Source of the DNA: an uncultured Defluviitaleaceae bacterium
GTDB lineage: Bacteria; Bacillota; Clostridia; Lachnospirales; WRBF01
Direction: 5' to 3'
Assembly (NCBI GenBank): GCA_964468805.1
Contig: CAYXWM010000004.1
Coordinates: 969-64,968, forward strand
Length of the DNA: 64,000 nt
Under the pieces are notes generated by a model. It saw only the letters and a list, made by a program, of their open reading frames with translations, had not been told where the DNA came from and did not search any database. Position 1 is the stretch's first letter, and each line of letters opens with the position of its first letter. Below are positions 22,053-54,841 of this stretch, in pieces. A program made the position numbers and the translations under genes.

Positions 22053-22166
22053 TAATATTAGACAAAACCCGGAAACTTTGCTATAGTATTGGAATCTATG
22101 AATCATCAACCCATGAGTATTTTATAAATATCTCTGATGAGTTCGTTGACAGATAATTTTTTACTG

Positions 22167-22256
22167 ATTCCATATAAGATGAGGGACAAAAATAATTGTT
22201 TTTCCTTGAGCCGTTGGAACAAATCAATTATTTTTGTCCTCTGTTTAAAATGGAAT
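22167..22256 (+). repeat. Rep-A copy A (long-hairpin interspersed repeat)
   Basis: ATTCCATATAAGATGAGGGACAAAAATAATTG..CAATTATTTTTGTCCTCTGTTTAAAATGGAAT. Ends 28 nt before the start at 22284. Confidence 0.9.
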
Positions 22257-22283
22257 AAGTATACATAATTCAGGAGAGTGACT

Positions 22284-22613
22284 ATGAGACATAATGTGGA
22301 TTTAAGACCTAACGAAACAATTATTGAAGTAACAAAAGGTGACTTATGGGTAGGATGGTCATTTGCTTCCAAACAAAACCGGGGCAGATACACATTTACA
22401 GATCAAAGAGTAATTTTCACCCCGACACAGTTATTGGCTATGGGAAGCGATATAGAATTTAACTACAGTGACGTAGAAAGCTTAGAAAAATGCTCCATAG
22501 GTCCGTTTTTACCTTTTGGAGTCAAAGTGATAACAAAACAAGGTGAAAAGTATAAATTGTCACTTATGAAAAGAGATAAATGGATTAAAATTATAAACGA
22601 CAGGATGTCTTAA
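22284..22613 (+). CDS. Small PH/GRAM-like domain protein (hypothetical)
   Basis: AGGAGA lies 7 nt upstream of the ATG at 22284. The size and beta-rich pattern are reminiscent of bacterial PH (YokE-like) domains. A terminator-like hairpin follows at about 22643-22680. Confidence 0.5.
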   Translation: MRHNVDLRPNETIIEVTKGDLWVGWSFASKQNRGRYTFTDQRVIFTPTQLLAMGSDIEFNYSDVESLEKCSIGPFLPFGVKVITKQGEKYKLSLMKRDKWIKIINDRMS

Positions 22614-22910
22614 TAACCTCAAAGAAAATATTATAATACGCTGAAAGTCCCGGAATTTAAAATTTCGGGATTTTTTTATTTCGGTAATTCCCCGGTCGCG
22701 ATCCTACTATCAGCAAAATGATGTTTTATTAATATAACCTTATAGAATAATAGCAAAAATTACCGGATTTATATTGTTATAACATTAATAATATGATAAT
22801 ATTGTATTAGACAAGAATAGTATGGGGGTGGTGTTGTGATAAATCAATGAAAAGAAAAAAGATTTTGCAAGACACCGCGACTAACTTGTTTCCTACATAA
22901 TTTCAGCGGT

Positions 22911-23021
22911 TATACTTAATTTCGAGTTAAGTAGTAACAAAAGCGTATATTTATAAAAACACAAGAGCGAACTGTTTACGAAGAATAGCTTTTATTACTA
23001 TTCCTTATGCAATTAAGTATA
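22911..23021 (-). repeat. Rep-C long copy 1 (TIR-bounded element)
   Basis: Bounded by TATACTTAATT.. and ..CAATTAAGTATA (12-bp inverted termini). The interior is homologous, in inverted orientation, to 41576..41712. Confidence 0.85.
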
Positions 23022-23076
23022 TAAACTTATTTGAATCTGAAAAAAAGCCGTGAAAAACGGCGGATAGGAGATATGT

Positions 23077-24534
23077 ATGAGAAAAATAATATCAGGTTTG
23101 TTGATTTTAGTTTTATGTACTGCTTTTTTGAGCGGTTGCAGTAAGGAAGAGATAAATTATCTTAATCTTACACGAGAGATGTCTGCCTTGGAATCCGCAC
23201 AGGATGTAGGAAGGCTTGACATTGAATTAGGTGAGGCTTGGGTAAGGGAAAAAGTAAAATTGTCGGTTGATTATCGTATGAATATGGCTGTAGATTACTT
23301 TGATTTGAATTTGGCGGTTACATATAACGGAACAAAAGCCGGTAATATTGATGTTATTTATGATTTCCAAAAAACAGATTCAATTTATATATCAGCAAAA
23401 GGCGTTTTAGACCTTATCCCATTATACGAAAAGCTGGGCTTTAGAGTATCCAAGGATGTAAAAGAGGCTCTTAAAGACAAAGACTATATTGTAGTTGATA
23501 TGAGTGCAAATGATAACCAAGATTTTGTGGATTACAAACGAAACTTTAAAAACAGAAGCCAAGTCTCCAAATATTTATATGATTTCTTGGAAATGGCATT
23601 TGGGCAATTCAGCACGGGTGTTGTTTCCGAGAAAGACGGTGAATATAAAATATCTTTAAACAATCAACAGATTTATGAGTTGTTTAAAAACACCGTGAAT
23701 TATATTTCTCAAGACCCCGAACGTTTTTACAGCCAATTCTTAAAATTTATCAAAAAGACCTATTTATATCCTCAAAATATAATAGACGCACTTGAGGCAC
23801 AGGACAAAGCATTTCGGTATAACATGAACACTTTAAACCAATCCCTGGAGCAAAGCGAACCTTATACATTAGAATACTTATCTATGCTTGAGGGAACCAA
23901 GTTTGAATCCTCACTTAAAAAGGAATCCGGAAAATATGTTCAGACTACGAATTTTGTCTTAAAATATTCCAATGATGTCGTCCTTAAATTAACCGATAAA
24001 AATACCATGACCCCGGGTAAGGTTACCCCTAAGGAAATCACCGGAAACTTCTTTGATTACAATGAGCTTCTTGAAATAATGTATCACAAAGGCAAGTTCG
24101 AAAGTATGGATATTTACTTGAATCGTTCAGAACCGGAAGGCACCCCGTATGTGCATGCTTCTTATGAGAATGGCTATGATGGTGGCTATGTAGATTACTT
24201 TAATTCTGATAACAGTCTGTATGTCAGTCTGCCTTCAATCTGTAGACTCATGGGTGAGGAAGTTGAATTGGATGAGGAGAACAAAACAGCACACTTTACC
24301 GTAAACGATGCTAAGATCCAAATGCCGGTCATTATGAAAGACGGCAATGCTTTTGTGAAATTAAGGGATTTTGAAAAGCTGGGGTATACTGTTGACTATC
24401 ATGTGAAATATAGAGCGAAACATGAAGAGGAATATGAAGAGGACTATGACGAGGACTATGAAGCGGACTATGACGAGGACTATGAAGCGGACTATTACGA
24501 GGAATACGCTATCGTTACTGTTTACAAATCCTAA
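23077..24534 (+). CDS. Lipoprotein with a C-terminal stalk-like (Cu-amine-oxidase-N-like) domain and an acidic Tyr-rich tail
   Basis: Lipobox FLSGCS. The tail is KHEEEYEEDYDEDYEADYDEDYEADYYEEY, encoded by 24-nt tandem units at about 24438-24500. A bidirectional terminator hairpin lies at about 24543-24585. Confidence 0.75.
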   Translation: MRKIISGLLILVLCTAFLSGCSKEEINYLNLTREMSALESAQDVGRLDIELGEAWVREKVKLSVDYRMNMAVDYFDLNLAVTYNGTKAGNIDVIYDFQKTDSIYISAKGVLDLIPLYEKLGFRVSKDVKEALKDKDYIVVDMSANDNQDFVDYKRNFKNRSQVSKYLYDFLEMAFGQFSTGVVSEKDGEYKISLNNQQIYELFKNTVNYISQDPERFYSQFLKFIKKTYLYPQNIIDALEAQDKAFRYNMNTLNQSLEQSEPYTLEYLSMLEGTKFESSLKKESGKYVQTTNFVLKYSNDVVLKLTDKNTMTPGKVTPKEITGNFFDYNELLEIMYHKGKFESMDIYLNRSEPEGTPYVHASYENGYDGGYVDYFNSDNSLYVSLPSICRLMGEEVELDEENKTAHFTVNDAKIQMPVIMKDGNAFVKLRDFEKLGYTVDYHVKYRAKHEEEYEEDYDEDYEADYDEDYEADYYEEYAIVTVYKS

Positions 24535-24620
24535 TTCCCATTAAAAAAATGCAGCCCCGGATTAACCACGGGCTGCATTTTTTTACGGCAGAAATACTAA
24601 CAAATGTTCGCATATATTTC

Positions 24621-25865
24621 TCATTTAAAGAAGTTTATGGGATGAATAATATGCTCGTCCTTGGGGTTTACTTTTGTTATGTTTTTATCCAAGAGAAACA
24701 GCCCCTTTTTTATAGAATGATACCCGAAACGTTCCCTTAATTTATCCACCATATGCTCCATAATCTCCGCCTTGTCCCGTTTGTCCATATCCGTAAAAAG
24801 ACTTAGCTGAACAAAGGCATCTTTGTCCACCGGGTTTGTACCTCGAACTCCAATGCTCCTTATGGGATGATACATTTTGTATTTGGTCAGGAAGATTTCC
24901 ATTGCCTTTTCGGCAATTTCCGAAGAAATAAAGGTTGGCATTTTTAACCCGGCTTGGCGTTCACAGGACATAAGGTTCTTGTCACGGACGTAAATTTGAA
25001 CGGTGGTGCATTTTAGCCCGTGTTTTCTGAGCCTTGCCGCTACGCTTTCGGAGAGCATATAAATAACGATTTTTACGTCATCCGGGGTAAGCAGGTCACG
25101 AGGCGTTGTTATGGAGTTTCCTATGCTTTTTATAAAGGACTCCGGATTGCTTGAGGACACGGGAGAATTGTCTATACCGTTGGCAAAACGGTGCAACACC
25201 AACCCCCATTTTCCAAGACAACCGTAAAGATATTTATAATGGCAGTTTGCTAAGTCTCCTATGGTGTTTATGTTTAGACTGCGTAATTTTTTGGTGGTGG
25301 AACGCCCCACATAGAGTAATTCGGATGCAGGTAATGTCCAGACCAGATTTTTAAAGTTTTCCTTGGTTATAACCGTGGTTGCGTCCGGCTTTTTCATGTC
25401 ACTGCCCAGTTTAGCAAAAACTTTATTGAAACTTACCCCAACCGAGGCGGTTATTCCTACTTCTTTAAGAATTCTGTGGCGTATTTCGTTGGCTATGGTA
25501 GGGCCGCTTCCGAAAAGCCCCACGCTACCGCTTACGTCCAACCAACATTCGTCTATACCAAAGGATTCCACTTGGTCTGTATATTCTTCGTAAATACTCT
25601 TGACTGTTTTGGAAAACTGTAAATACAGTGAAAAATTAGCCGGTAGGCATATTAATCCCGGGCATTTCTGTTTTGCCTGCCAAATAGGCTCGCCTGTTTT
25701 TACCCCCGTCTTTTTTGCAGGTTGGTTTTTTGCCAAAATAATTCCGTGCCTTGCATTGGGGTCACCGCAAACAGCCACAGGCTTCATTCTTAAATCGGGT
25801 CTAAACAAACATTCCACCGAGGCATAAAAATTATTTAAGTCGGAATGTAATATAACCCTATCCAC
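24621..25865 (-). CDS. dinB: DNA polymerase IV (Y-family)
   Basis: ILHSDLNNFYASVECLFRPDLRMKPVAVCG and downstream Y-family motifs. GTG start 4 nt after GGAGGTGA. Confidence 0.9.
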   Translation of the reverse strand: MDRVILHSDLNNFYASVECLFRPDLRMKPVAVCGDPNARHGIILAKNQPAKKTGVKTGEPIWQAKQKCPGLICLPANFSLYLQFSKTVKSIYEEYTDQVESFGIDECWLDVSGSVGLFGSGPTIANEIRHRILKEVGITASVGVSFNKVFAKLGSDMKKPDATTVITKENFKNLVWTLPASELLYVGRSTTKKLRSLNINTIGDLANCHYKYLYGCLGKWGLVLHRFANGIDNSPVSSSNPESFIKSIGNSITTPRDLLTPDDVKIVIYMLSESVAARLRKHGLKCTTVQIYVRDKNLMSCERQAGLKMPTFISSEIAEKAMEIFLTKYKMYHPIRSIGVRGTNPVDKDAFVQLSLFTDMDKRDKAEIMEHMVDKLRERFGYHSIKKGLFLLDKNITKVNPKDEHIIHPINFFK

Positions 25866-25880
25866 CGATTCACCTCCGAT

Positions 25881-25928
25881 AAAACATATGTTCGATTATT
25901 ATTATATTACTTTCGGAGGAAAATACAA
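25881..25928 (-). promoter_or_regulatory. dinB promoter with a LexA (Cheo/SOS) box
   Basis: Read in gene orientation: TTGTAT (25928-25923), 16-nt spacer, TATAAT (25906-25901), 6 nt, then CGAACATATGTTTT (25894-25881). The Firmicute consensus is CGAACATATGTTCG, so the left half is perfect. Confidence 0.6.
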
Positions 25929-26018
25929 CAGAAATATTCCGGCAGTTTTTGATAGGGTTTGACAAATCTTGAAGCAAATTAGAGTTAGACCATTTATTGG
26001 CAATGTATAGATATACTG

Positions 26019-26109
26019 ACTCCATTTTAAAACACAGGACAAAAATAATTGATTTTTTCCAACGGTTTAAGGAAAAACGATTATTTTTGTCCTTCAAATT
26101 ATTTGGAAT
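26019..26109 (-). repeat. Rep-A copy B (the only reverse-oriented copy)
   Basis: The reverse complement matches the Rep-A consensus. Lies between the histidine-kinase stop and the dinB promoter. Confidence 0.9.
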
Positions 26110-26154
26110 TGGTTATTAATACCCCGCCTCTATGCGGCGGGGTATTCGGGTAAT

Positions 26155-27657
26155 CTATTCTTCACATCTGCTTAATACAAACCAAAATACACTGCCTTGT
26201 CCCGGTCGGGAAGCAACACCGTAAAGCCCGTTATGGTTTTGTATAATCTGTTTTACTATGGATAGCCCCAAACCGCTGCCGGTAATGGCTCGTTTGTGGG
26301 TTTTATCTACCTTATAATATCTGTCCCAAATATAGGGCAGGCTTTCTTCGGCTATGCCTTCGCCGCTGTCTATGACCTCAATCCGAACGCTGTTTTCATA
26401 ATCTGTTTGCCTTACGGTTACGGTTTTGTCCTCTCCGGAATAATTAATCCCGTTGATTAAAAGATTATAAAAAGCTTGGGATATTTTGCTCTCATCGGCG
26501 TAAACATAGGTTTCTCGTTGGTATTCAAAGTTAATGGTGAAGTTTTCGTTCTTTAGCAGACCTCTGAGCCTTTCCACGGCCTCACGGATACTTTGGGTAA
26601 GATTATACTTTCGCATATCCGGCTGTTGTATTCCGGATTCCAGCTTGGATATATCCAAAACATCGTTAACCAGATTGGTAAGCCGTCTTGATTCGTCTAC
26701 TATAATTTGTGCGTTTTCCGCATTGTTTTCTTCAGGCAAATCACGCATAATTTCCGCATAGCCGGAAATTAGAGTAAGTGGCGTTCGCAAGTCGTGGGAT
26801 ATGTTTGCTATCAATTCACGCCTCAATTTTTCTACCTTAGATAATTCCTTTGCGGCGAAATTTAAGGTATCCGCAAGCTCGGTGATTTCTTTGTAACCCT
26901 TATCGTAGAATTGGATATCGAAATCCCCGGTAGCCAGTTTTTTTGCACTTTGATTAATATTAACTATGGGCTTGGATACGTTTCTGGCTATTATAAACGC
27001 CAATATTACAGAAAAAACAAGCATAATCACGGTTATATAATACAACTGTACCCTTAGGGTATTTACCGTGGAATTAACCGGGGTGATTACGGAATTAAGC
27101 ATAACAGCCACGGTTTCTTTGTTTTCTGTGGTAAATACCTTTACGTAAACTATACTTTCCGGCACAGTAAAGCCGGGCAGTATTCTTATATCGCTGATAA
27201 TTATGTCCTTATCGGTGCTTTCCGAAGGCTGAATCTGAAATTTTGTAATGCCGTTGCGGTCGAAAAATTGCAGGAGTTCGCCGCCTTTTTCTATGGTATT
27301 AATCAGCAGCATAGCCTTTTCATAGGTGGTGAGTTTGTGTATCAAGCAATCACGCAAAACGTCCGAGGAATAGACCTCTTTGCCGTTTTTTGTGAGTATT
27401 TCGACGCAAACGTCGTTTCCTTCGGATATTCCGGTGACTATATTGGGTAAATCTTTATTATTTAAATTTTTTAAAATAGTAGAGGCGGCGGACTTTATGT
27501 CGTTGATTTTAATATGCTTATAGAAGCTTTCCAAAAACACCGTTTGGAACAACCACAGTATTAACAACAACAGCCCGCAAAAGCCCAATAAAAAGCTGAA
27601 TATTTTCCATTTTACGCCGGTATTGCGTCTGCTCTTAACCTTCAAATCTGTAACCAA
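26155..27657 (-). CDS. Sensor histidine kinase (HAMP-HisKA-HATPase)
   Basis: Two TM segments. H-box ELIANISHDLRTPLT. N/G boxes NLLINGINYS and GSGLGLSIV. Confidence 0.85.
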   Translation of the reverse strand: MVTDLKVKSRRNTGVKWKIFSFLLGFCGLLLLILWLFQTVFLESFYKHIKINDIKSAASTILKNLNNKDLPNIVTGISEGNDVCVEILTKNGKEVYSSDVLRDCLIHKLTTYEKAMLLINTIEKGGELLQFFDRNGITKFQIQPSESTDKDIIISDIRILPGFTVPESIVYVKVFTTENKETVAVMLNSVITPVNSTVNTLRVQLYYITVIMLVFSVILAFIIARNVSKPIVNINQSAKKLATGDFDIQFYDKGYKEITELADTLNFAAKELSKVEKLRRELIANISHDLRTPLTLISGYAEIMRDLPEENNAENAQIIVDESRRLTNLVNDVLDISKLESGIQQPDMRKYNLTQSIREAVERLRGLLKNENFTINFEYQRETYVYADESKISQAFYNLLINGINYSGEDKTVTVRQTDYENSVRIEVIDSGEGIAEESLPYIWDRYYKVDKTHKRAITGSGLGLSIVKQIIQNHNGLYGVASRPGQGSVFWFVLSRCEE

Positions 27658-28297
27658 CTCCGCGCAGAGTTTTTATAAATTCCGAATATTTGCCCAATGC
27701 CTTGCGAATCAGTTTAATATGGGTATCCAGGGTGCGGTCGTCACCGAAAAAATCATAACCCCAAACTTCCGTAATTAGCTTCTCCCGAGACAGGGCAACG
27801 TTTTTGTTTTTAACCATAAAAAACAGCAAATCGTATTCCTTGGGTGTCATGTTTATATCCACCCCGTCTACCGAGATTTTTCTTGCGGTAAAATCCACGG
27901 CAAGACCTTCTTTTACGTATTTGTCATGATTTACAGCATTGCCTTTTTTGGCACGTTTCATAATTGCCTCTATACGCATCATCAGTTCCTTGGGAGAAAA
28001 GGGTTTGACAACATAATCATCCACGCCGGATTCAAAGCCGTGGATTTTGTCGTATTCTTCGCCTCTGGCTGAAAGCATAACCACGGGAATGTCATGGGTT
28101 TTGCGGATTTCTTTCACAGCGGAAAAGCCGTCCAGCTCCGGCATCATAACGTCCATAAGAATAATGTCATAATTGCCTTCTCTGCAGAGCTTAACTGCCT
28201 CCATGCCGTTTGCTGCTTCTGTTACCTTATGCCCTTCAAACTCAGCATATTTTTTTATTAGGGCACGTATTTTATCCTCGTCATCCACTATTAACAT
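27635..28297 (-). CDS. OmpR/PhoB-family response regulator
   Basis: MLIVDDEDKIRALI..DIILMDVMMPELDG receiver domain. C-terminal winged helix ..LRGVGYRFEG. The track start at 28369 is probably too long, and ATG 28297 or GTG 28306 after GAGGTG are the likely starts. Confidence 0.85.
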   Translation of the reverse strand: MLIVDDEDKIRALIKKYAEFEGHKVTEAANGMEAVKLCREGNYDIILMDVMMPELDGFSAVKEIRKTHDIPVVMLSARGEEYDKIHGFESGVDDYVVKPFSPKELMMRIEAIMKRAKKGNAVNHDKYVKEGLAVDFTARKISVDGVDINMTPKEYDLLFFMVKNKNVALSREKLITEVWGYDFFGDDRTLDTHIKLIRKALGKYSEFIKTLRGVGYRFEG

Positions 28298-28530
28298 GGA
28301 ATACACTGTATCACCTCGTTTCCGGTAAAAACCTTGGAGTAAAAATTTCCGGAAAATGTTCTTCCCCAAACCTATTTAATATTTTGCGGGGATAAATAAT
28401 ATTTTAATAAGGTAAAGCGATAAAGCAAGATTTTGTTGCTTTTTTAACTTTTCCGGACTATAATTGTTTTATATATTTTTGAAAGGAGATTGTCTGCTTA
28501 TTATACCGGAAAAATTAAAGCATATAAAGT

Positions 28531-28579
28531 AAATAAGGATTAAACAAAATAAGGATTAAACAAAATACGGTTTAAAAAC
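28531..28579 (+). repeat. Three tandem 16-nt units immediately upstream of hisF
   Basis: AAATAAGGATTAAACA x2 (28531-28546 and 28547-28562), then a degenerate AAATACGGTTTAAAAAC. Ends 15 nt before the hisF ATG. Confidence 0.85.
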
Positions 28580-28593
28580 GGACAATAGAAAAT

Positions 28594-29352: not shown

Positions 29353-29356
29353 TGAC

Positions 29357-29965: not shown

Positions 29966-30131
29966 TTTAAAAAATTTCGACATTTGGAATAGAACAGGCA
30001 ATTTATTTTCAAGCCCTCATAGAATAGATTATATTAATCCGGCATTTTGACAGAGTGTAGATTTACGGCGGAAGCGTCGTTACGTCTAATCACAGCCGGA
30101 CTATATCAATCTGTTCCGGAGGTGTTTGTCA

Positions 30132-30293
30132 ATGAATAACCCAAACCATTACGAACATCACCATCAACATTCCAATGACAATACTATGATGTTGTTAATG
30201 ATGATGATGATAATGAACCCAATGATGTTCGGCGGAGATAATTCCATGATGTTTCTGCTGTTACTTATGATGATGATGAACGAAGGAAGATAA
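30132..30293 (+). CDS. 53-aa His-rich / extremely Met-rich hydrophobic peptide (hypothetical)
   Basis: GGAGGTG lies 7 nt upstream of the ATG. Translation is MNNPNHYEHHHQHSNDNTMMLLMMMMIMNPMMFGGDNSMMFLLLLMMMMNEGR. A strong terminator follows 22 nt after the stop. Not in the ORF track (under 60 aa). Confidence 0.5.
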   Translation: MNNPNHYEHHHQHSNDNTMMLLMMMMIMNPMMFGGDNSMMFLLLLMMMMNEGR

Positions 30294-30341: not shown

Positions 30342-30446
30342 TATTAAACCGTTTTTTTAAAAGAACGGATTTTACAGTAATTCTACAAAATAGACGAATA
30401 TAAATTCGTCTATATAATTTTAATGTAGATTTACTTAACAGTTTTA

Positions 30447-30536
30447 ATACCATATAAGTTGAGATACAGAAATAATTGTTTTTTCTTGAACCGTTGAAAA
30501 AAATCTACTATTTTTGTCCTCTGTTTAAAATGGAAT
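30447..30536 (+). repeat. Rep-A copy C
   Basis: Diverged 5' half and conserved 3' half. Its terminus provides the last codons and the TGA stop of the convergent gene 30536..31615. Confidence 0.85.
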
Positions 30537-31615
30537 CAGTGTACTTTATTTAATATGGACTGTAACTTTTCAATCAGCAGTTCGTTATCTTTTTCCGTAC
30601 CTATGCATATTCTGAAAAAGCTGTTGTCCAGAAACGGGAAACTGTCGGCGTTTCTTATGAGTATGCCTTCTTTTATGAGCAGGTCAAAGAGGATTTGGGC
30701 GTTTAGAGTTGGGTTAAGAATTTTTATCAGAATAAAGTTGGAATAGGATTCGTAATATTTAACTGAGCTTATTTTCTCCAAGGCGGAGCATATTTTTTCC
30801 CGTTGTTGGGCGATGAAGGTTTTGGTTTTGTTTATAAATTGTGTATCTTTAAACATAGACTCTCCGGCAAGAGTGCTTAGGGTGCTTACCGACCAGGGAT
30901 CCTTTACTTTTTCGGCTGTTTCCAATACTTTTTCGTCGGAACAAAGCCCGTAACCCAATCTCAGGCCGGGCACGCCGAAAAATTTTGAAGTGCCTCGGAT
31001 TATGAATAAATTCTTATGCTTTTCAATTAAAGGACAGGCTGAAACATCCTCCGAAAATTCCGCATAGGTTTCGTCTATCATAACAAAAATGTTGTTTTCC
31101 TTACAGCGGTTGATGATGGTTTCCAGGTCTTCTAAAGGAATTGCGGTGCCGGTAGGGTTGTTGGGGTTGCAGATAACCAGCAGATTAATTTCCTCTGATA
31201 GGATAGGCAATAAGTTATTTAAATTAAGCCGGAAATTATCCTCCTCGAGCAAGGGAAACAATACAAAAGTACCACCGTTGTTACTGACCGCCCGCTCGTA
31301 TTCCGAGTATGCCGGTGAAATAATCAGTGCCTTTTTTCCGCTGTATAAATTCATAACCAAGGAAATCAGCTCTGTTGAGCCGTTACCTACAATAATATTG
31401 TCCGCAGATACCCCGGTATAATTTCCTATGGCTTGTCGCAGTTTTAAGTATTTGGCATCCGGGTAACGGGTTATGGCGGTTACGTTGTCTATTATGGAAT
31501 TTATAATACGCTCCGGCGGAGCCAGAGGGTTGATATTTCCGCTGAAATCTTTTATTTCGCTTGTCTTGATGCCGTATAGTCTTTCGGCTTCGTCTAAATT
31601 TCCTCCGTGTTGCAT
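30536..31615 (-). CDS. Class I/II PLP-dependent aminotransferase family (threonine-phosphate decarboxylase CobD-like / HisC-like)
   Basis: N-terminal MQHGGNLDEAERLYGIK..IKDFSGNINPLAPP is typical of the CobD/HisC subgroup. Also NPNNPTG and the ..SKFFGVPGLRLGY Lys motif. Confidence 0.8.
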   Translation of the reverse strand: MQHGGNLDEAERLYGIKTSEIKDFSGNINPLAPPERIINSIIDNVTAITRYPDAKYLKLRQAIGNYTGVSADNIIVGNGSTELISLVMNLYSGKKALIISPAYSEYERAVSNNGGTFVLFPLLEEDNFRLNLNNLLPILSEEINLLVICNPNNPTGTAIPLEDLETIINRCKENNIFVMIDETYAEFSEDVSACPLIEKHKNLFIIRGTSKFFGVPGLRLGYGLCSDEKVLETAEKVKDPWSVSTLSTLAGESMFKDTQFINKTKTFIAQQREKICSALEKISSVKYYESYSNFILIKILNPTLNAQILFDLLIKEGILIRNADSFPFLDNSFFRICIGTEKDNELLIEKLQSILNKVH

Positions 31616-31844
31616 GGAAAACGTCCCTTCGAGTTTTTATCAATGATATTCAATATAAATCAAAAAAGCAAGACCTTGGGGAAAACTTTTTCTGATTAAA
31701 CAGTTTGAGGTAAATTAAAATTAATATAACCTCTTGTTAAGGAAATTGTTTTGTACATTAAGTATTTTCCGGCGGGATTTCTACGGATAAATTTTATGCC
31801 AATACACGTAAAAACGTTTATTGGCATAAAATCGAGGATGGTTT

Positions 31845-31880
31845 TACTTAATTGTATAAGGAATAGCAATTAAGTATATA
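31845..31880. repeat. Rep-C short (palindromic) form
   Basis: TACTTAATTG-TATAAGGAATAG-CAATTAAGTA(TATA). Adjacent 12-bp hairpin TTTATGCCAATA..TATTGGCATAAA at 31793-31831. Confidence 0.75.
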
Positions 31881-36726: not shown

Positions 36727-37177
36727 TTTATGCCCCCTTTGTATTTCCCCGAGTCGGTTTTTGGCGGCATCAAAGCAGAGTAAACAAACAATACTTTTGT
36801 TTATACACAAATTTTTACAATTTGCTACATAATTAATGCCGTTTATATTATACTTCACTTTATTATAACAAACAAGTACGCATATCATTCTCACAGGAAA
36901 ACCAAAGGGCGGTTGCCGAGTTTTACAAAATATGCCGTATTTCCCGTCTTTCCGGTGGCTTAAAACGTACCCGTAACATAATGTCATCTTTATATAACGT
37001 CTTTTAGTAAAAAAAGTTGCACTTTTCGACGAAATAATTTTGGTATATTTTTTGTGTCATCGTAAAAAAATAAATCTGCTACATATTTTGTCGAAGTTTT
37101 GCATATTATTTTAGTTTAGTTTTGATATATATAAAGGTAAAAATATGTTTCCCCAAACTCTCAAAGATTATATACCA

Positions 37178-37269
37178 ATTCCATATAAGATAAAGGATAA
37201 AAATAATCTTCTTTTCCTTGAACCGTTGGACAAAATCAATTATTTTTTGTCCTCTGTTTAAAATGGAAT
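37178..37269 (+). repeat. Rep-A copy D
   Basis: Matches the Rep-A consensus. Lies in the 1 kb divergent intergenic region. Confidence 0.9.
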
Positions 37270-37770
37270 CAGTAATATAAGAAAACGCAGGTTATTGCGG
37301 CTTAAACCGGAACCGTAAATGGAAATAGGGCAATATTTTAAATCCTGTATTTAATCCTTTGGATTACAAACTATTCAATATTATTACAGTATTGTTTCAT
37401 TGTCGCAACGGCATTTACATTTGTTTACCTATCGTCTATAATTGCTATATAATAGCTAAAAACTTGTTTTACCGACGGCACTCCCAATTGCATTTAGTCC
37501 GGGCAGCGTTATCGTTGTACACGGAATTTTACGGGGCTGCAGATTCGTGTTTTTATCCGGTCTAAAGTAAGATATGCTTACAGATTTGCATATTTTATAC
37601 GGATTGTTTTAAAACAGGGATTTGTGTAGGGTGCAGATTATAAATAAAGAACTACAAAGTAAACGCTGAATAAGAAATAAAGTCTTTGGGTTCAAATAGG
37701 TTTCCTTACGGCTCACATAAGCCTTTTATAATTAAAAATAACGGCGTTTACCATACAGGGGGTAAGTATT

Positions 37771-39321: not shown

Positions 39322-39470
39322 GCTTTTGTATTGAAATAAGAAATATTTGTGATATTATATATAGCTGTAAACCTTAACCTTGAGGATTGTATTCTCAAGG
39401 TTAAATGCTTTTTCGATAAATTTAATGTCAAGTGACTTAATTATTAATAAAGTTTTGATTTTAAATATTA

Positions 39471-39533
39471 AAGTCTTTTTGAAGGGAGTTTGAGGGAGAC
39501 TTTTTCTTCAGAAAAAGTTTCCCTCAAGGTCTT
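39471..39533 (+). repeat. Rep-B copy 1 (conserved GAGGGAAAC hairpin element)
   Basis: AAGTCTTTTTGAAGGGAGTTTGAGGGAGACTTTTTCTTCAGAAAAAGTTTCCCTCAAGGTCTT. 62/63 identical to 45297..45359. Ends 33 nt before the ATG at 39567. Confidence 0.9.
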
Positions 39534-39566
39534 ATCTTTTTACTTATACCTGAAAGGAATTAACTG

Positions 39567-41572: not shown

Positions 41573-41575
41573 TGT

Positions 41576-41712
41576 TATAATGAATTGCATAAGGAATAGT
41601 AACATAGCTATTCTTCGTAAACGGTTCACTCTTGCGTATTTATGAACAAAACACCGGTCGCTCTCCGCTACGAGTATAATCTTTTTGACTACTGCACAGG
41701 CAATTAAGTATA
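41576..41712 (+). repeat. Rep-C long copy 2
   Basis: Starts 4 nt after the era stop. Degenerate left terminus TATAATGAATTG and intact right terminus CAATTAAGTATA. Interior CATAAGGAATAGTAACATAGCTATTCTTCGTAAACGGTTCACTCTTGCG.. is homologous to 22911..23021 (reverse complement). Confidence 0.85.
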
Positions 41713-41821
41713 TTTAAAAAACCGACTTGAGTTTTACAAGGGTTTTTTGCATAATTTTTGTTGACGTATTTGCTCCTTTATGTTATTTTTTCTAATAAAA
41801 ATAGCATAAAGGGGTTATCAT

Positions 41822-44459: not shown

Positions 44460-44481
44460 ACATAGCGGTTTAACTTTTTTA

Positions 44482-44588
44482 GTATACTAATTCCATATAA
44501 GATGAAGGACAAAAATAATCGTTTTTTCCTTGAACCGTTGGAAAAAATCAATTATTTTTGCCCTCTGTTTAAAATGGAATCAGTATAC
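44482..44588 (+). repeat. Rep-A copy E (full-length, including outer GTATAC termini)
   Basis: GTATACTAATTCCAT..ATGGAATCAGTATAC. Nested between the perfect 12-bp inverted repeat ATAGCGGTTTAA (44462-44473) and TTAAACCGCTAT (44597-44608). Confidence 0.92.
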
Positions 44589-44640
44589 ATTTTAACTTAA
44601 ACCGCTATAACAAAAATTCGGCACAAAAGACAAAACCCTC

Positions 44641-45276: not shown

Positions 45277-45296
45277 TTCTTTAAGTCTTTTTATTA

Positions 45297-45359
45297 AAGT
45301 CTTTTTGAAGGGAGTTTGAGGGAAACTTTTTCTTCAGAAAAAGTTTCCCTCAAGGTCTT
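45297..45359 (+). repeat. Rep-B copy 2
   Basis: Perfect hairpin TTGAGGGAAACTTTTTC-TTCA-GAAAAAGTTTCCCTCAA. Ends 30 nt before the start at 45389. Confidence 0.9.
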
Positions 45360-45388
45360 TTATTCTATATACAGGAGTGTGAAAAACG

Positions 45389-47492: not shown

Positions 47493-47542
47493 ATAGCCAC
47501 CTAAAATCAGGTGTTCAAGTGCTTTTTAATTAACTTAATTAT

Positions 47543-47617: not shown

Positions 47618-47652
47618 ATACTTAATGTGCAAGAAATAGCGATTAAGTTTAA
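47617..47652. repeat. Rep-C short form (degenerate), abutting Rep-B copy 3
   Basis: TATACTTAATGTGCAAGAAATAGCGATTAAGTTTAAT. Confidence 0.55.
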
Positions 47653-47692
47653 TTATTTACCCTGTACCGCATCCCCGAAAGCCTTAAAGTAG

Positions 47693-48664: not shown

Positions 48665-48715
48665 TTGCCGTAAATCTGCTTTTAACGTGGGTTTAGTTCC
48701 GTTATTTCAGTAATA

Positions 48716-48762
48716 GGAGATTTGAGGGAAACTTTGATTGTAGAAGTTTCCCTCAAGGTTTT
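48716..48762 (+). repeat. Rep-B copy 4 (short-loop variant)
   Basis: TTTGAGGGAAACTT-TGATTGTA-GAAGTTTCCCTCAAGGTTTT. Ends 18 nt before the comEC ATG. Confidence 0.8.
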
Positions 48763-48779
48763 AAAAGCAGGTGAATACC

Positions 48780-51110
48780 ATGAACAGACCGTTAATTATA
48801 TCCCTTTTATATACTGTTGCGGGAATACTAATCGCTAGATTTACAGGCGATACGGTTGGGCTTACGGTATTTTTTTTATTGTGTTTGGGTATGTGCCTTT
48901 GCCTGTATATAAAATTTAAAACCCCTGCCGTTTTTATATTTTTATTATTTTTCGGTGTAGGTGTTTTCAGAACTGCCGCTGTAATTCAACCTTTCGACCC
49001 TAAGCTTGAATCCTACGCTAATTCCGGTACTGAATTAACTGTTCTTGCTAAGGTTACGGATTTATCCTTAACCGGCACAGGTCTCCAACGAATAGAAGCC
49101 GAAACCTATCTTATAAAAAGCGACACAGAAGAACAGCAAATAAATATTAACTTTAAGGCGGTATTGGAAAAGGGCGAAACGGTTCAGGTAGGGCAACAAT
49201 TGGTCTTAAAAGGCAAATTGCTTCATCATTCACCGGCAAGAAACCCAGGCGGTTTTGATGAATATACCTACCTTAAATCACTGAACATAGCATATAAAAT
49301 GTTTCCCAAGGTGATTTCCAAAGGCGAAATAAGTCAAGACTTAAATACATATCTGTATAATATTCGGGAGAAAATTTCCTCCGTTTTTGACAAAGCTCTG
49401 CCCGAACGGGAAGCCGCCGTTATTAAATCCATGATTTTAGGCGATAAATCCGAACTGGATGATGAGATTTCCGATATATACAAGGAAGCCGGCATATATC
49501 ATATTTTGGTTATCAGCGGGCTGCATATAACGATACTGGGTTTTTGCTTCGAGTTATTCTTTTCCTTGTTTATGAAAAGGCGTTTTTCCGGGATACCCGC
49601 TCTGCTCCTTTTGACTGTTTATTGCTTATTAACCGGCAGTTCATTATCTACGGTTCGTGCCGTTACCATGTTTGGGGTTATGGCTTTTTCAAGGTTATTA
49701 CGCCGAGATTATGATATGCTTTCCTCCGTTGCCTTTTCCTGTATAGCCCTGCTTATATATCAACCCTTTTATCTTTGGAATACAGGATTCTTGCTGACCT
49801 ATTCGTCAGTTTTGGGAATAGGCTACGGTTATGTCCCCGTGTTGAATTTATTTGAATATCTGAAAAAATATAAACCGGGTAGGGCTTTCTTTAAATTTGA
49901 TAAACTTAATAAGGCTCTTGCCCTTATTGTAGCCGTTCAGGTGGCAAATGCACCGGTTATAGCCTTTCAATTCAATTATTATGCCACTTACTCTGTTTTG
50001 ACCAATCTTATAATCATCCCAACAGTTTGCCTTACTGTTGGTTTGGGTATGATAGCCGGGGTAGTGGGCTTGATGTTTTCGGAACTTGCGGTTATACTCA
50101 GTGGAGGAGTCTTTACTCTGCTTAAAGCTTATGAATGGATTTCAAACTTTTTCAGAGAACTGCCCTTTGCTAAAATTTTAATGGGACAGCCCTTGATTTT
50201 GGAAATCTTTCTGTGGTATGTGACTTTGTGTGTTTTATATTTTGTAATCAACAAAAAGAAGTTTAAATACCTAAAATATTCTGCCTGTATTTTTGTTGCC
50301 TTTGTGGCGGTAAGTTTAAGTAAGCCATTTTTTCAAACGCCTACCGTAACTATGATGGACGTGGGTCAAGGAGACAGTTTTATAATTGAAGCAGCCGGCA
50401 AGGTTTATATAACCGATTGCGGAAACAGCGGTTACGGTAACTCCGTGATTTTGCCTTATCTGGATTTTAAGGGCATACATAAAATCGACGGTGTTTTCAT
50501 CAGCCACTTTGACAAGGACCATGCCGCAGGGCTTGAAGAAATAATAGGCAAAAAACAAATCTCAGCCGTGTATTCCAAGGAAGGTACTTGGGAAAGCGAA
50601 AAATACAAGAAAAAAATACTTAACATGTTTGAACGCAACAATATAGACTTTATAAACATGAAACAAAATGAATTGCTAACCGATGGGGAACTTAAATTTC
50701 TCGCCCTTTCACCGCCCAAAGATTTTGGCAACACCAACGACAACAGTTTGGTTTTTAAATTCAGCTACGGAGAAGCGGATTTTCTGTTTACGGGTGATAT
50801 GGGTAAAAACACCGAAAAGGCTGTACTTGCAGAGGAAAACAACATCAATTGCGAAATAATTAAGCTGGCACATCACGGCTCAAAAAACTCTACCACCGAG
50901 GAATTTTTGAAAACCGTGTCGCCCAAAGCAGCTTTGGTTAGTGCCGGAATAAACAATATGTATAAGCATCCCTCAAAAGAAGTCTTGGAACGCCTAAGGG
51001 CTATGAATATTCCCTGCTTCAGCACCCCGGTAAACGGAGCCGTAACCATTGAAATTAAGGACGGCGGTAAGGAGCTGAACGTAATCCCAATGATAATAAC
51101 GGGAAGTTAA
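48780..51110 (+). CDS. comEC: DNA internalization competence protein ComEC/Rec2 (DUF4131 + competence + MBL domains)
   Basis: Polytopic core ..GIYHILVISGLHI.. and a C-terminal MBL domain MDVGQGDSFII..HFDKDHAGG..LAHHGS. The ATG at 48780 follows AGGTGA. Confidence 0.9.
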   Translation: MNRPLIISLLYTVAGILIARFTGDTVGLTVFFLLCLGMCLCLYIKFKTPAVFIFLLFFGVGVFRTAAVIQPFDPKLESYANSGTELTVLAKVTDLSLTGTGLQRIEAETYLIKSDTEEQQININFKAVLEKGETVQVGQQLVLKGKLLHHSPARNPGGFDEYTYLKSLNIAYKMFPKVISKGEISQDLNTYLYNIREKISSVFDKALPEREAAVIKSMILGDKSELDDEISDIYKEAGIYHILVISGLHITILGFCFELFFSLFMKRRFSGIPALLLLTVYCLLTGSSLSTVRAVTMFGVMAFSRLLRRDYDMLSSVAFSCIALLIYQPFYLWNTGFLLTYSSVLGIGYGYVPVLNLFEYLKKYKPGRAFFKFDKLNKALALIVAVQVANAPVIAFQFNYYATYSVLTNLIIIPTVCLTVGLGMIAGVVGLMFSELAVILSGGVFTLLKAYEWISNFFRELPFAKILMGQPLILEIFLWYVTLCVLYFVINKKKFKYLKYSACIFVAFVAVSLSKPFFQTPTVTMMDVGQGDSFIIEAAGKVYITDCGNSGYGNSVILPYLDFKGIHKIDGVFISHFDKDHAAGLEEIIGKKQISAVYSKEGTWESEKYKKKILNMFERNNIDFINMKQNELLTDGELKFLALSPPKDFGNTNDNSLVFKFSYGEADFLFTGDMGKNTEKAVLAEENNINCEIIKLAHHGSKNSTTEEFLKTVSPKAALVSAGINNMYKHPSKEVLERLRAMNIPCFSTPVNGAVTIEIKDGGKELNVIPMIITGS

Positions 51111-51197
51111 AGTTTTTTGAAGTTAAAGATAAATTTTTCTCATCTGCAAGTTTTCTCAAAAGTCTTTTTTTTACAAAATTTCAAAGTAGGTTATAAA

Positions 51198-52193
51198 ATG
51201 AAAGAACTGAAAAACCATATAAAATTAAAACAATTCAAGCCTATTTACCTTCTTTTCGGAGAAGAACATTTTCTCATGAGAAAATACAAGGACGAATTGG
51301 AAAAAATTATAGAGCCGGATGCACAAACCATGAATTTTGACCGCTTTAGGGACAAGGAATGCTCCGTATCCGGTATTTGCGATGCGGCGGCAACCCTGCC
51401 TTTTATGTCCGAAAAAAGATTGGTTTTTGTGGAATCCTCCGGATTGTTTGCACCGGGCAGAAAGGACGACTCCGAAAGAATATGCGATTTCTTGGACGAC
51501 CTTCCGGACACTACTCATATGGTGTTTGTGGAAAGTAACGTGGACAAACGCAGTCGGCTTTATAAAAAAGTAGCCAAACTGGGGCATTGTGCCGAGTTTA
51601 AAACCCAAGCGGAAAAGGACTTGGGGGTTTGGGTTGAGCAAATATTCAAAAAGCAGGGCAAATCCATTTCAAAAATCGACGCAACTTTATTAATCCGTAC
51701 CGTTTCGCCGGATATGGAGACTGTCTACAAAGAATGCGAAAAAATTATAGCCTATCTGGGAGAACGGGATAAAGTAAAGGCAGAGGATATAGAGCAAATC
51801 TGCGTTAAATCCCTTGAAGCACAAATATTCCAGATGTTGGACGCTTTCGGTCACAGAAACGCCGGAACAGCCCTAGACATCTACAGCAAATTAATACGCC
51901 TAAAAGAATCGCCCATTATGATAATCTCCATGATAGCAAGGCAAATACGCCTTATTATTCAATCCAAATTGCTTTTAAACAAGGGGCTTGATTCAGCCTC
52001 TATTGCTCAACGCCTTTCCCAGCGACAATTCGTAATTAACGAATGTATACGCCAAAGCAAGAATTTCAGCTTGGAAGTCTTGCAAAAAGCATTAAATAAT
52101 TGCCTGGAGACAGACGTAAATATAAAATCGGGTAAAATTACCGATGTTCTTGCGGTAGAGTTGCTTATAACCCGGTTTTGCACCGGTGCATAA
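51198..52193 (+). CDS. holA: DNA polymerase III delta subunit
   Basis: KPIYLLFGEEHFL..LPFMSEKRLVFV.. pattern, and conserved synteny after comEC. The ATG at 51198 is preferred to the track start at 51117. Confidence 0.85.
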   Translation: MKELKNHIKLKQFKPIYLLFGEEHFLMRKYKDELEKIIEPDAQTMNFDRFRDKECSVSGICDAAATLPFMSEKRLVFVESSGLFAPGRKDDSERICDFLDDLPDTTHMVFVESNVDKRSRLYKKVAKLGHCAEFKTQAEKDLGVWVEQIFKKQGKSISKIDATLLIRTVSPDMETVYKECEKIIAYLGERDKVKAEDIEQICVKSLEAQIFQMLDAFGHRNAGTALDIYSKLIRLKESPIMIISMIARQIRLIIQSKLLLNKGLDSASIAQRLSQRQFVINECIRQSKNFSLEVLQKALNNCLETDVNIKSGKITDVLAVELLITRFCTGA

Positions 52194-52624
52194 AGCCTTT
52201 ATAAAATAAAACATTTTTATCGTAAAGGTTTGTATTTTACGATACCAACGGCGAATTAAAGATTTTTACGTGCCGTATGAACTTTTCCGTATACAAAATT
52301 TTGGATATTTACGAGCAAAAATTCGGAAAAATTCAAAAACCGGCTAAATTACTCTATAAAACTCCTCATTATATATTGTAGATTTATTACGGTTTTTAAG
52401 CTAACGCTTGACAGATATTTCAAAACGTAATACAATTGCATGGTGTTATAAAAGTTTTATGGATAAAAATTTTCTTCGTGCTAAATCAATTTAGTACTAA
52501 ATTAATAAATTTCTTTTCCCAATCACAAGAATTTTATTAATTTATAACTTTGATTAAAAAAACTTAAAAAGTTTGGGTATGTATAAAAGTATACTCAAAA
52601 ATTCACTGTAAGGAGGTGTGTTTT

Positions 52625-54184
52625 GTGTGGGATAACGTAGTATTTACAAGTATTATCGGCGTTTTGGCAACCATATTTGTAATAGGCATAAGTTTTTTCT
52701 GCGGCATATTGTATCGCAAAAAAATAGCCGAAACCAAGCTTGGCTCTGCGGAAAAAGAAGCCGTATTTATCTTGGAAGAGGCTAGGCGTAAGGCAGAAGC
52801 CGAAAAGAAAGAAATTTTGCTGGAAGCAAAAGAAGAAAGCATTAAAGCAAAAAACGAAGCCGAAAAGGAAGTTAAGGAGCGTCGTGCCGAAATTCAACGC
52901 CTTGAACGCAGACTGCTGCAAAAAGAGGAAACGTTGGACAAAAAGGTTGATGCTTTGGAAAAAAGGGAAGAACAGTTAGCTACGAAAAATGAGCACCTCG
53001 AACAACTTAAGGTCGAGGTTGAACATATAAAAGAGCAACATATTTCCGAACTGGAACGAATCTCGGCTTTGACCCAAGAACAGGCTAAGGAATACCTGTT
53101 GGCTATGGTAGAGGACGATGTGCGTGCCGATACGGCAAGGCTTATTAAGGACTATGAAGCCAAGGCAAAACAGGATGCGGATAAAAAATCCCGTGAGATT
53201 TTGGCAGGAGCCATCCAACGCTGTGCCGTTGATCATGTGGCGGAAACCACCGTATCAGTTGTGGCATTGCCAAATGATGAAATGAAGGGTCGCATTATCG
53301 GCCGTGAGGGCAGAAATATTAGGGCTTTGGAATCCCTTACCGGCATAGATTTTATAATCGATGATACCCCCGAAGCGGTTATTCTCTCCGGCTTTGACAG
53401 CATGAGACGTGAAATCGCAAGAATAGCACTTGAAAAATTAATAATCGACGGTCGTGTTCACCCCGCCAGAATAGAAGAAATGGTGGAAAAGGCAAAAAAA
53501 GAAGTGGAAGTCACCATCAGAGAAGAAGGCGAAGCCGCCACTTTCGAAACCGCCGTACACGGTATACACCCCGATTTAATCCGCCTGCTGGGCAAAATGA
53601 AATTCAGGACAAGCTATGGACAAAATGTTTTGAAACATTCTATAGAAGTGGCTCACCTTTGCGGTTTGATTGCCGCTGAACTGGGCGTTGACATATCCAT
53701 TGCCAAACGAGCCGGTTTGCTCCATGATATAGGAAAATCCGTAGACCACGATATGGAAGGCTCTCATATAACCATAGGTGCCGGTCTTTGCAAAAAATAT
53801 CGTGAATCCGATATTATTATTAACGCTGTAGAATCACATCACGGCGACATTGAACCCAACAATATCTACTCCATTATCACACAAACAGCCGATGCAATAT
53901 CCGCATCTCGCCCCGGTGCAAGACGTGAGACTCTGGAATCTTACATCAAACGCCTGCAAAAACTGGAGGCCATCGCCGATAGCTTTATCGGAGTTGAAAA
54001 GTCGTTTGCTATCCAGGCCGGTCGTGAATTGCGAATTGTCATAATTCCCGAAATGGTCGACGAAAGCGAATTAACCATCTTGGCTCGTGAGATTGTAAAA
54101 AGAATAGAATCCGAATTAGACTACCCCGGACAAATCAAAATACATCTGATTCGTGAAACCCGTGCTATTGAATACGCAAAATAA
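52625..54184 (+). CDS. rny: Ribonuclease Y
   Basis: N-terminal TM, coiled coil, KH domain ([17 protein letters not shown]) and HD domain (LLHDIGK). GTG at 52625 lies 8 nt after AGGAGG. Promoter TTGACA-17-TACAAT at about 52409-52437. Confidence 0.92.
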
Positions 54185-54288
54185 TATTTTTATATTATTC
54201 TTATATATTTTTTATTCACGGTATTTTTAACTTATGTTTCACTTACTTTGCTAATAACATGGCATTGATTTGCCATTTCGGTATCCCA

Positions 54289-54350
54289 CAACCTCGTCTG
54301 AGAATAATCCCTGTTTTTGTGATTATACTCAGACGGGGTTGTTGTTTTTA
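54289..54350. terminator. Long-stem terminator shared by rny (+) and the convergent small ORF (-)
   Basis: ACAACCTCGTCTGAG..CTCAGACGGGGTTGT stem followed by TGTTTTT. Confidence 0.75.
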
Positions 54351-54369
54351 CTGAGAAATTTCACTATCT

Positions 54370-54537
54370 TCACCGCCGACATCTACAGCTTCCTATACAA
54401 CCGAAAAGGATAGCCAACAGAAAAAATATCCAGCTTGTTGACAGTAACAGAGCAAAAATATATATTAATAACTGTAATAATGCTATACTTAAACAAATCC
54501 CCGCAATAACGCAGAAGCATTTAAAGAAGAAATACAT
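54370..54537 (-). CDS. 55-aa hydrophobic Cys-rich peptide with a basic C-terminus (type I toxin-like)
   Basis: AAGGAGGTG lies 5 nt upstream of the ATG. Translation is MYFFFKCFCVIAGICLSIALLQLLIYIFALLLSTSWIFFLLAILFGCIGSCRCRR. Not in the ORF track. Confidence 0.45.
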   Translation of the reverse strand: MYFFFKCFCVIAGICLSIALLQLLIYIFALLLSTSWIFFLLAILFGCIGSCRCRR

Positions 54538-54642
54538 AATAACACCTCCTTTTTAGATTTTTATATGTCAGGAGATTGTTTTTAACTTTTCAAACAACCT
54601 CGATTAATGCAATAATCCTCGTTTACCGTAAGTTTTATAATA

Positions 54643-54731
54643 ATTCCATATTAGATGAATGATAATTAATCGTTTTTACCTTGAACTGTTGAAAAAAATC
54701 AATTATTTTTGTCCTCTGTTTAAAATGGAAC
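54643..54731 (+). repeat. Rep-A copy F
   Basis: Matches the Rep-A consensus, with the 5' half more diverged. Confidence 0.88.
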
Positions 54732-54841
54732 CGGTGTATTTGCTATTAGAGAGGATTAGTATATCTTATTCTCCGGTTGTCCCAAAGTATCCTAGTCTAT
54801 GTGCACCGGAACACAAAACCTTTTAGGATAGGAGTTTTCTA

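Follow-up and report, generated by a model that had tools for sequence, protein, structure and literature searches.

A near-palindromic repeat of about 104 nt, here called Rep-A, is present in exactly six copies between 22.2 and 54.7 kb (six in 33 kb) of the DNA stretch from an uncultured Defluviitaleaceae bacterium analysed here, the window, which is 64 kb long; all window-based counts refer to these 64,000 nt. With a probability of about 0.7, Rep-A is an unrecorded family of non-autonomous miniature inverted-repeat transposable elements (MITEs) of the RUP, Correia and ERIC kind that has multiplied in this lineage and whose copies now decay. A reading made earlier from the sequence alone had proposed either such a MITE/RUP-like element or a small RNA (sRNA) family. 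The first of these fits what was found, namely a small, non-coding, multi-copy repeat with terminal inverted repeats that is absent in relatives, has rebuilt one gene end and lies nested in other inverted repeats at two sites. Size (about 50–500 bp in bacterial MITEs generally), lack of coding capacity, terminal inverted repeats, multiple copies and presence/absence between species all agree with the generic description of such elements, the comparison between species being what points to mobility.

In the course of events that we favour, Rep-A would have been acquired or amplified after the lineage split from its two sampled relatives. It would have spread by cut-and-paste or copy-in transposition, presumably with the help of a transposase encoded elsewhere in the genome, and its insertions would have gone into AT-rich intergenic DNA and, twice, into the loop of a host hairpin. 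The present copies would be decaying, with a hairpin that is not under selection.

Six full-length copies of a non-coding repeat

The number of copies is supported by a core search, by repeat finding and by a profile search. A 24-nt core of Rep-A occurs at five places with up to three mismatches (0.00 expected from 100 shuffles), and repeat finding links all six places to each other as direct or inverted repeats. At full sensitivity, an nhmmer profile of the six copies picks up these same six (E = 6e-26 to 5.5e-32; Table 1) and no seventh match better than E = 0.4 over the 64 kb. No copies are found in 1–22 kb, in 55–64 kb or in the next 4.6 kb past the right end of the window, as represented by a Logan contig.

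Similarity begins at TATAC and stops at GTATA in every copy, which gives a length of 104–106 nt, the consensus TATACTAATTCCATATAAGATGAAGGACAAAAATAATCGTTTTTCCTTGAACCGTTGGAAAAAATCAATTATTTTTGTCCTCTGTTTAAAATGGAATCAGTATAC and the conserved termini TATACYAATTCC...GGAATCAGTRTA. Copy E had been taken for the only full-length copy; in the alignment, all six run from TATAC to GTATA, and the earlier length of ~90 nt for the other five is explained by the divergence of their ends. The terminal inverted repeats pair TATACTAATTCCAT with ATGGAATCAGTATA, and pairing runs through nearly the whole element.

Rep-A is not coding, as had been concluded before: none of the reading frames is open through all six copies. 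The consensus does have one open frame, MKDKNNRFFLEPLEKINYFCPLFKMESVY, which was rejected as a small protein because it lacks a ribosome-binding site and is interrupted by stops or frameshifts in copies A, B and D. Two open reading frames (ORFs) said to be seeded by the repeat, 22106..22393 and 25870..26097, are present and do overlap with copies A and B.

Table 1. Repeat copies, flanking inverted repeats and the modified gene in the 64-kb window. Divergence is given relative to the Rep-A consensus. L001 is a contig of a metagenome-assembled genome (MAG) discussed in the text.
Feature	Position	Strand	nhmmer span	Divergence	Remarks
Rep-A copy A	22160..22263	+	22162-22264	6.5%	
Rep-A copy B	26012..26116	-	26011-26113	10.3%	
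Rep-A copy C	30440..30543	+	30444-30545	15.0%	Decayed
Rep-A copy D	37171..37276	+	37173-37274	9.3%	
Rep-A copy E	44483..44587	+	44485-44588	1.9%	Nearest of the six to the consensus
Rep-A copy F	54636..54739	+	54639-54738	13.1%	Decayed
Host inverted repeat round copy E, left arm	44462..44473				12 bp, perfect; ATAGCGGTTTAA
Host inverted repeat round copy E, right arm	44597..44608				12 bp, perfect; TTAAACCGCTAT
Host inverted repeat round copy F, left arm	54613..54620				8 bp, perfect; TAATCCTC
Host inverted repeat round copy F, right arm	54751..54758				8 bp, perfect; GAGGATTA
Aminotransferase gene, class I/II	30536..31615	-			Last codons GTA CAC TGA inside copy C
Rep-B	22910..23022	+			Palindromic-ended second repeat family, 113–140 nt
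Rep-B, second copy	41575..41713	-			Longer by a 28-nt internal insertion, present also in the L001 copy
Mini-element	20037..20068	+			Rep-A-type end (TATACTGATTCC) combined with a Rep-B-type end
Mini Rep-B	31844..31877	+			Two terminal repeats only: TACTTAATTG...CAATTAAGTA

A hairpin inherited rather than maintained

The folded Rep-A consensus has an outer (~14 bp) and an inner (~24 bp) stem that are separated by a 9/9-nt internal loop, and a 10-nt loop at the tip. The long imperfect hairpin described earlier is thus real and strong in copies A, B, D and E, where z-scores range from -3.9 to -10.4 on either strand (A, -35.2 kcal/mol, z -6.7; B, z -5.3; D, z -3.9 on the plus and -4.6 on the minus strand; E, -36.9 kcal/mol, z -8.2 on the plus and -47.9 kcal/mol, z -10.4 on the minus strand). 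It has degraded in copies C and F, whose z-scores of -0.6 to -1.4 (C, -0.8; F, -0.6) are no better than those of shuffled sequence and whose changes are uncompensated. Across the six copies, a compensatory (two-sided) change is seen in one of 32 consensus pairs, more than 20 cells being broken, and the RNAalifold covariation term of +2.2 kcal/mol does not support the structure. Both strands of A, B, D and E fold, which a DNA palindrome would be expected to do, while the loss of the fold in C and F, together with the single compensated pair, indicates that the hairpin has been inherited and not maintained.

These observations bear on the proposal that Rep-A is a selected family of structured sRNAs or cis-regulatory hairpins, be they mRNA-stabilising, attenuating or targeted by RNase III, that is not primarily mobile. 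Very stable hairpins in four copies, with z-scores down to -10, would suit such a family, as would an almost invariant block of 32 nt in the 3′ half and the orientation of copies A, B and E, which are the only ones for which orientation is informative and which are all co-oriented with their flanking genes. Yet three out of three corresponds to p = 0.125 only, the two strands fold about equally, and, as described below, Rep-A is absent at matching sites of related genomes. At gathering thresholds, no Rfam family matches at the copies; a permissive Rfam search with copy E gave mir-982 as the best match (30 bits vs a threshold of 70), the sub-threshold matches being AT-rich miRNA hairpins. A sigma-70 promoter or an intrinsic terminator within the repeat was also considered and rejected, as copies A–D, which were scanned for both, contain no consensus match.

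The positions of the copies point in the same direction. All six sit in AT-rich DNA between functionally unrelated housekeeping genes, but each in its own way. Copy A has a promoter-like site (22059-22087) on one side and, on the other, the ribosome-binding site and start codon (ATG, 22284) of a GRAM-domain gene; it is probably part of the 5′ untranslated region of this gene, with its hairpin 7–8 nt upstream of the ribosome-binding site. Copy B is flanked by the terminator hairpin of a histidine-kinase gene and by the promoter region of dinB (conserved in a relative), and copy C follows the his-operon terminator and overlaps, with its 3′ end, the end of a convergent aminotransferase gene. Copy D occupies a divergent spacer, with an ABC ATPase gene (minus strand) on one side and a VanW-domain gene (plus strand) on the other, and lies upstream of a promoter-like site at 37414-37442; copy E lies in a 181-nt spacer upstream of comEA; and copy F separates two small divergent genes downstream of rny. 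With promoters, terminators and genes placed so differently around the copies, a single cis-regulatory role for all of them becomes less likely. Taken together with the two lost folds, the lack of compensation and covariation and the lack of an Rfam match, these unlike positions turn the evidence against the sRNA alternative of the sequence-only reading, and we regard a selected RNA family as very improbable. Effects of Rep-A on neighbouring genes appear incidental: if transcribed, the hairpins of copies A and E would be double-stranded RNA substrates and could change mRNA stability, by analogy with Correia and ERIC (PMC2229807, PMC3049150).

Absence from related genomes and a rebuilt gene end

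Two NCBI MAGs offer a comparison at the level of orthologous sites. In the contig L004 of GCA_964392115.1 (~85% nucleotide identity in genes) and the contig L005 of GCA_964655745.1, the gene order is that of the window, i.e. FtsX-like, aminotransferase, small ORF, hisIE, hisF, response regulator, kinase and dinB. No Rep-A is present anywhere in these two syntenic loci. Site B is unoccupied in L004 and site C in both contigs, so that the presence/absence expected of a mobile element is seen between species, in the form of absence at sites B and C and not of base-exact empty sites. At site B of L004, alignment is good over the half of the spacer next to dinB, and other sequence takes the place of the part that bears Rep-A; at site C, the spacer measures 227 nt in the window vs 40 nt in L004.

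Site C also shows how an insertion can remodel the end of a gene, which the earlier reading had suggested. The aminotransferase encoded there, whose relatives carry the names threonine-phosphate decarboxylase or histidinol-phosphate transaminase, ends in ...SILNKVH*, compared with ...AIL* and ...EIIK* in its two closest homologues (88% and 74% identity), which are encoded in these two MAGs. Both homologues stop 3–4 residues earlier and lack the tail, and copy C supplies the TGA stop and a 4-residue tail. Of the three codons and the stop formerly ascribed to the repeat, GTA CAC TGA, which lie in the terminal repeat, are the most that Rep-A itself can have contributed; the AAA codon belongs to the flank.

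Two further features of this region are recorded in their own right. Between copy C and the his-operon terminator lies a nested palindrome (30378-30430, TCTACA...ATAGACGAAT...ATTCGTCTAT...TGTAGA); it is part of ~115 nt that are absent from L004 at site C and may be another small inserted hairpin. Downstream of hisIE, and followed by a strong terminator, a 55-aa Met/His-rich ORF (MSMNNPNHYEHHHQHSNDNTMMLLMMMMIMNPMMFGGDNSMMFLLLLMMMMNEGR; 30126-30293, plus strand) is kept in position and composition at 3005-3166 of L004 and 3751-3936 of L005, with no Pfam family on record.

TA-flanked ends and probable insertion into hairpin loops

The ends of Rep-A read TAC...GTA inside flanking TA dinucleotides. 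In the window, the adjoining dinucleotide is TA at five of the six 3′ ends and three of the six 5′ ends. It is TT in a half-copy on L001 (see below), which suggests that TA belongs to the flank and not to Rep-A; at the ends of the second repeat family, Rep-B, TA is found in four cases out of four. The pattern fits a TA target duplication as in IS630/Tc1-mariner-type elements and RUP, without being a proof of it (PMC2229807). A TA-targeting IS630/Tc1-mariner-like enzyme would be our first, if low-confidence, candidate for the mover of Rep-A.

Two copies are enclosed by perfect inverted repeats of the host (Table 1). The 12-bp repeat round copy E, noticed already in the sequence-only reading and found as described, has few equals by chance, with inverted repeats of at least 12 bp accompanying 0.06% of random placements (n = 5000; 0.0006); for the repeat round copy F, the corresponding figure at 8 bp or more is 3.7% (n = 5000; 0.037). 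The two repeats are unrelated to each other in sequence, and the modelled empty site of copy E is a 12-bp stem with a T-rich loop. On the simplest reading, E and F inserted into host hairpin loops.

Nesting of this sort could also suit a mechanism that uses single-stranded DNA. REPINs are hairpins of ~100 nt formed by two inverted halves and have many intergenic copies, a likeness to Rep-A. As a REPIN-like element, Rep-A would be a doublet of inverted short palindromic units that is moved as single-stranded DNA by a RAYT, i.e. a domesticated IS200-like HUH/Y1 tyrosine transposase encoded once in the genome. The whole of Rep-A is indeed one hairpin in the size range of REPINs, and its unequal arm conservation, described below, suits an end-asymmetric mechanism. 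However, the scan of ~40 of the 54 candidate ORFs of the 64-kb window revealed neither a RAYT gene nor any other Y1 transposase, and the window contains no solitary REP-type half-units (palindromes of 20–35 nt). No conserved tetranucleotide precedes the 5′ ends, and insertion of the IS200/IS605 type beside a fixed tetranucleotide was rejected for want of a motif common to the 5′ flanks. It also counts against a REPIN that REPIN/RAYT systems have been described mainly in Proteobacteria. We therefore consider this explanation quite unlikely, and the MITE reading remains the one that accommodates most observations, each of its rivals fitting fewer of them.

Copies beyond the window

An exact scan of 185,579 GTDB representative genomes with a 25-nt Rep-A core gave one match, the half-copy on the MAG contig L001, which probably stems from the same study as the window. 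In positions 1-127 of L001, the left part of Rep-B passes without a gap into the final 35 nt of Rep-A, and the flank of the half-copy holds an insertion sequence (IS) of the IS3 family and a phage terminase-like gene. The IS3 element (215-1540, with orfA/orfB in the usual frameshift arrangement) lies ~50 nt from the Rep-B/Rep-A chimera; it was dismissed as the parent of Rep-A, its ends (TGTGAACTG...CAGTTCAC) being unrelated.

Scans of JGI metagenomes returned no match and then two chance matches without internal similarity, those of viral contigs no match and then one chance match, and blastn against plasmid and phage collections no Rep-A match. Likewise, nothing scored when the joined open frames of the consensus were searched against a collection of 5.8 billion proteins. 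In Logan contigs of SRR10912415, -16 and -17, insertions C and E are present, and each contig stops ~26–33 nt into Rep-A; one contig of SRR10912417 (L012) reaches the same copy E junction and stops 26 nt into the repeat. Breaks of this kind are expected from de Bruijn graphs at multi-copy sequence.

The confined distribution could suggest a host-selected DNA site, for instance a recombination site or an array bound by a nucleoid or regulatory protein, that was spread locally by recombination rather than by transposition. This would explain why the six copies cluster within 22–55 kb and are missing from the remainder of the window and the adjoining 4.6 kb, and it would agree with the single further partial copy in the GTDB scan and with the conservation of one half of the repeat. 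On the other hand, the housekeeping genes on either side are unrelated in function, the copies are 2–15% off the consensus with decayed ends, one of them overwrites a gene end, the partial copy on L001 is in a different context (IS3 element, phage terminase-like gene), and assembly graphs branch inside Rep-A in three samples. A host-selected site is, to our minds, very improbable.

Unequal arms and other difficulties of the MITE reading

The earlier impression that the 3′ half of Rep-A is better conserved than the 5′ half is confirmed by the alignment. Mean pairwise identity amounts to 77% in the 5′ half vs 89% in the 3′ half, and differences from the consensus number 41 vs 19, with the same direction in every copy. 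Our own binomial estimate, which assumes independent changes, gives p of roughly 0.003; some changes are common to several copies in a mosaic pattern, which means fewer independent events, and the asymmetry remains. The conserved block of the 3′ half is the same piece of Rep-A that is found in the L001 chimera.

Several points weigh against Rep-A being a MITE. First, simple neutral decay does not predict a roughly two-fold better conservation of the 3′ half. Second, no transposase with ends matching Rep-A was found among the ~40 of 54 window ORFs scanned, and the IS3 element beside the L001 half-copy is unrelated. Third, the spacers of the species compared differ by more than the repeat itself, which leaves excision boundaries and a TA duplication without proof, and the TA could simply belong to Rep-A. 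Fourth, exact-protein look-ups of the genes flanking sites A and E yielded no empty site from the same species, one gene having no record and another returning only a contig of the same population that breaks inside Rep-A. Finally, with one half-copy outside this population, the genome-wide copy number could be small.

Arm asymmetry is the only feature of Rep-A that could lead further. It may reflect either modular subfamilies that have one end in common or a real constraint on that end, and six copies are too few to decide between the two. It is unlikely, in our estimate, that the nearly invariant 3′ module of ~35 nt (ATTATTTTTGTCCTCTGTTTAAAATGGAATCAGTA) is the real functional unit, whether as the end used in an end-asymmetric, hairpin-loop-targeting transposition or as an RNA or DNA signal co-opted by the host. 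Were it a transposition end, it would belong to a mechanism that assembles elements from modules, among them Rep-A, the mini-elements and the Rep-B/Rep-A chimera of L001; in either version, the module would be something other than the passive arm of a conventional DDE-mobilised MITE.

Rep-B, mini-elements and Rep-C

Rep-B has the terminal inverted repeats TATACTTAATTGC, and its ends (TA-TACTTAATTGC) resemble those of Rep-A (TA-TACTAATTCC), which is why the two families may use the same transposase. Mini-forms of Rep-B measure ~32 nt, and the two mini-elements have this terminal motif in common with both families. The 12-mer TATACTNATTCC, with one mismatch allowed, occurs 10 times in the window vs 1.55 expected. 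Mosaics such as the Rep-B/Rep-A junction of L001 are typical of MITE families with a common transposase.

A third repeat, Rep-C, is a terminator-like hairpin (GAGGGAAACTTTTT...AAAAAGTTTCCCTC, then a T-rich tail) located just downstream of genes, at 39466-39538, 45292-45364 and 31664-31706 in the window. Unlike Rep-A, it is also present in L004 (1-61, 1750-1832 and 3362-3449), partly at sites that are empty in the window, as well as at 4552-4585 of the contig L008; it recalls the pneumococcal SPRITE repeat.

Genes of the window and additional observations

The window carries ordinary chromosomal genes, including hisF, hisIE, dinB, two two-component systems, era, recO, mntP, comEA, comEC and holA as well as rny, groES/EL, gdh, metA, a topoisomerase and ftsY. 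Of the ~40 ORFs scanned with Pfam, not one encodes a transposase.

The closest named GroEL relatives are Defluviitaleaceae MAGs with ~80% identity. ‘Acidaminococcales’, the label of the L001 MAG, was rejected as the taxon of the window, the GroEL and aminotransferase relatives pointing to uncultured Clostridia. The closest GroEL relatives P0122, P0123 and P0124 were considered for a comparison of site F and discarded as distant or non-syntenic. Of these, P0122 (L006 5426-7663, 745 aa) and P0123 (L007 8996-11035, 679 aa), which come from other metagenomes, exceed the normal length of GroEL by 140–200 residues, and overlapping blastn matches to the groEL of the window suggest a partial internal gene duplication.

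Near copy F, a simple ORF list missed or mis-stranded several small genes: a 55-aa hydrophobic Cys-rich peptide (54385-54550, minus strand), a membrane peptide of 52 aa that is preceded by a good ribosome-binding site (54843-55000, plus strand) and a Cys-rich ORF that runs from 55055 onward on the plus strand and starts with MSNQEIRCNVHNCKF. The 100-aa minus-strand ORF listed at 55113-55415 is probably spurious.

At the left end of the window, a 300-nt stretch recurs with 97% identity (1601-1900 vs 3025-3324) in the adjacent genes of two secreted or surface proteins, 310-2328 and 2379-3749; in a third protein nearby, tandem repeats of 12–24 nt encode a Thr/Pro-rich linker (4775-4972). Towards the right end, a skipping-rope RNA (Rfam RF02924; 52 bits vs a threshold of 36.7) is found at 58051-58132 on the plus strand, ~170 nt upstream of a gene at 58300-59640 that is glutamate dehydrogenase-like, a name given from its sequence only.

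Comparison with known systems

Bacterial MITEs, as tabulated, span 100–200 bp and possess a long stem-loop, terminal inverted repeats and TA at their termini, a description that Rep-A matches (PMC2229807). Closest in kind is RUP of S. pneumoniae, which has a length of 107 bp vs ~104 bp for Rep-A, resides in a Firmicute host of ~40% G+C and is likewise intergenic, non-coding and tightly folded, with paired terminal repeats and TA termini (PMC2229807, PMC3049150). RUP is thought to be moved in trans by IS630-Spn1 (PMC2229807, PMC3049150), whereas no partner IS of Rep-A was found in the window. RUP has moreover been reported to favour IS elements as targets, in contrast to the hairpin loops and AT-rich spacers in which Rep-A is found. 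The two are compared by description and alike in kind, the 25-nt Rep-A core having no exact GTDB match save the one MAG contig.

The Correia (NEMIS) elements of Neisseria share with Rep-A the long terminal inverted repeats and TA ends, at a size of 100–155 bp, and they, too, often lie beside or overlap gene ends and can fuse to ORFs (PMC2229807). Transcribed Correia hairpins are RNase III targets (PMC2229807). Correia elements differ in having IHF sites and outward promoters, none of which was detected in Rep-A, and in the phylum of their host. ERIC (IRU) of enterobacteria resembles Rep-A as an imperfect palindrome of ~127 bp in intergenic location; it lies in transcribed regions, has orientation-dependent effects on mRNA stability, and its transposase is unknown (PMC2229807, PMC3049150). 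ERIC is often kept at orthologous sites across species, unlike Rep-A, which is lacking in both of the closest genomes sampled, and the sequences of the two are unrelated.

In practical terms, Rep-A seeds spurious ORFs and breaks short-read assemblies, and it should be masked together with Rep-B and Rep-C in the annotation of this clade. Measured against RUP, Correia and ERIC, it is a familiar kind of element and not a surprising system, and it opens no long-standing question. What it would add to these families is a MITE from a poorly sampled, uncultured Clostridia-like lineage, along with clean examples of a stop codon rewritten by a small repeat and of hairpin loops as insertion sites.

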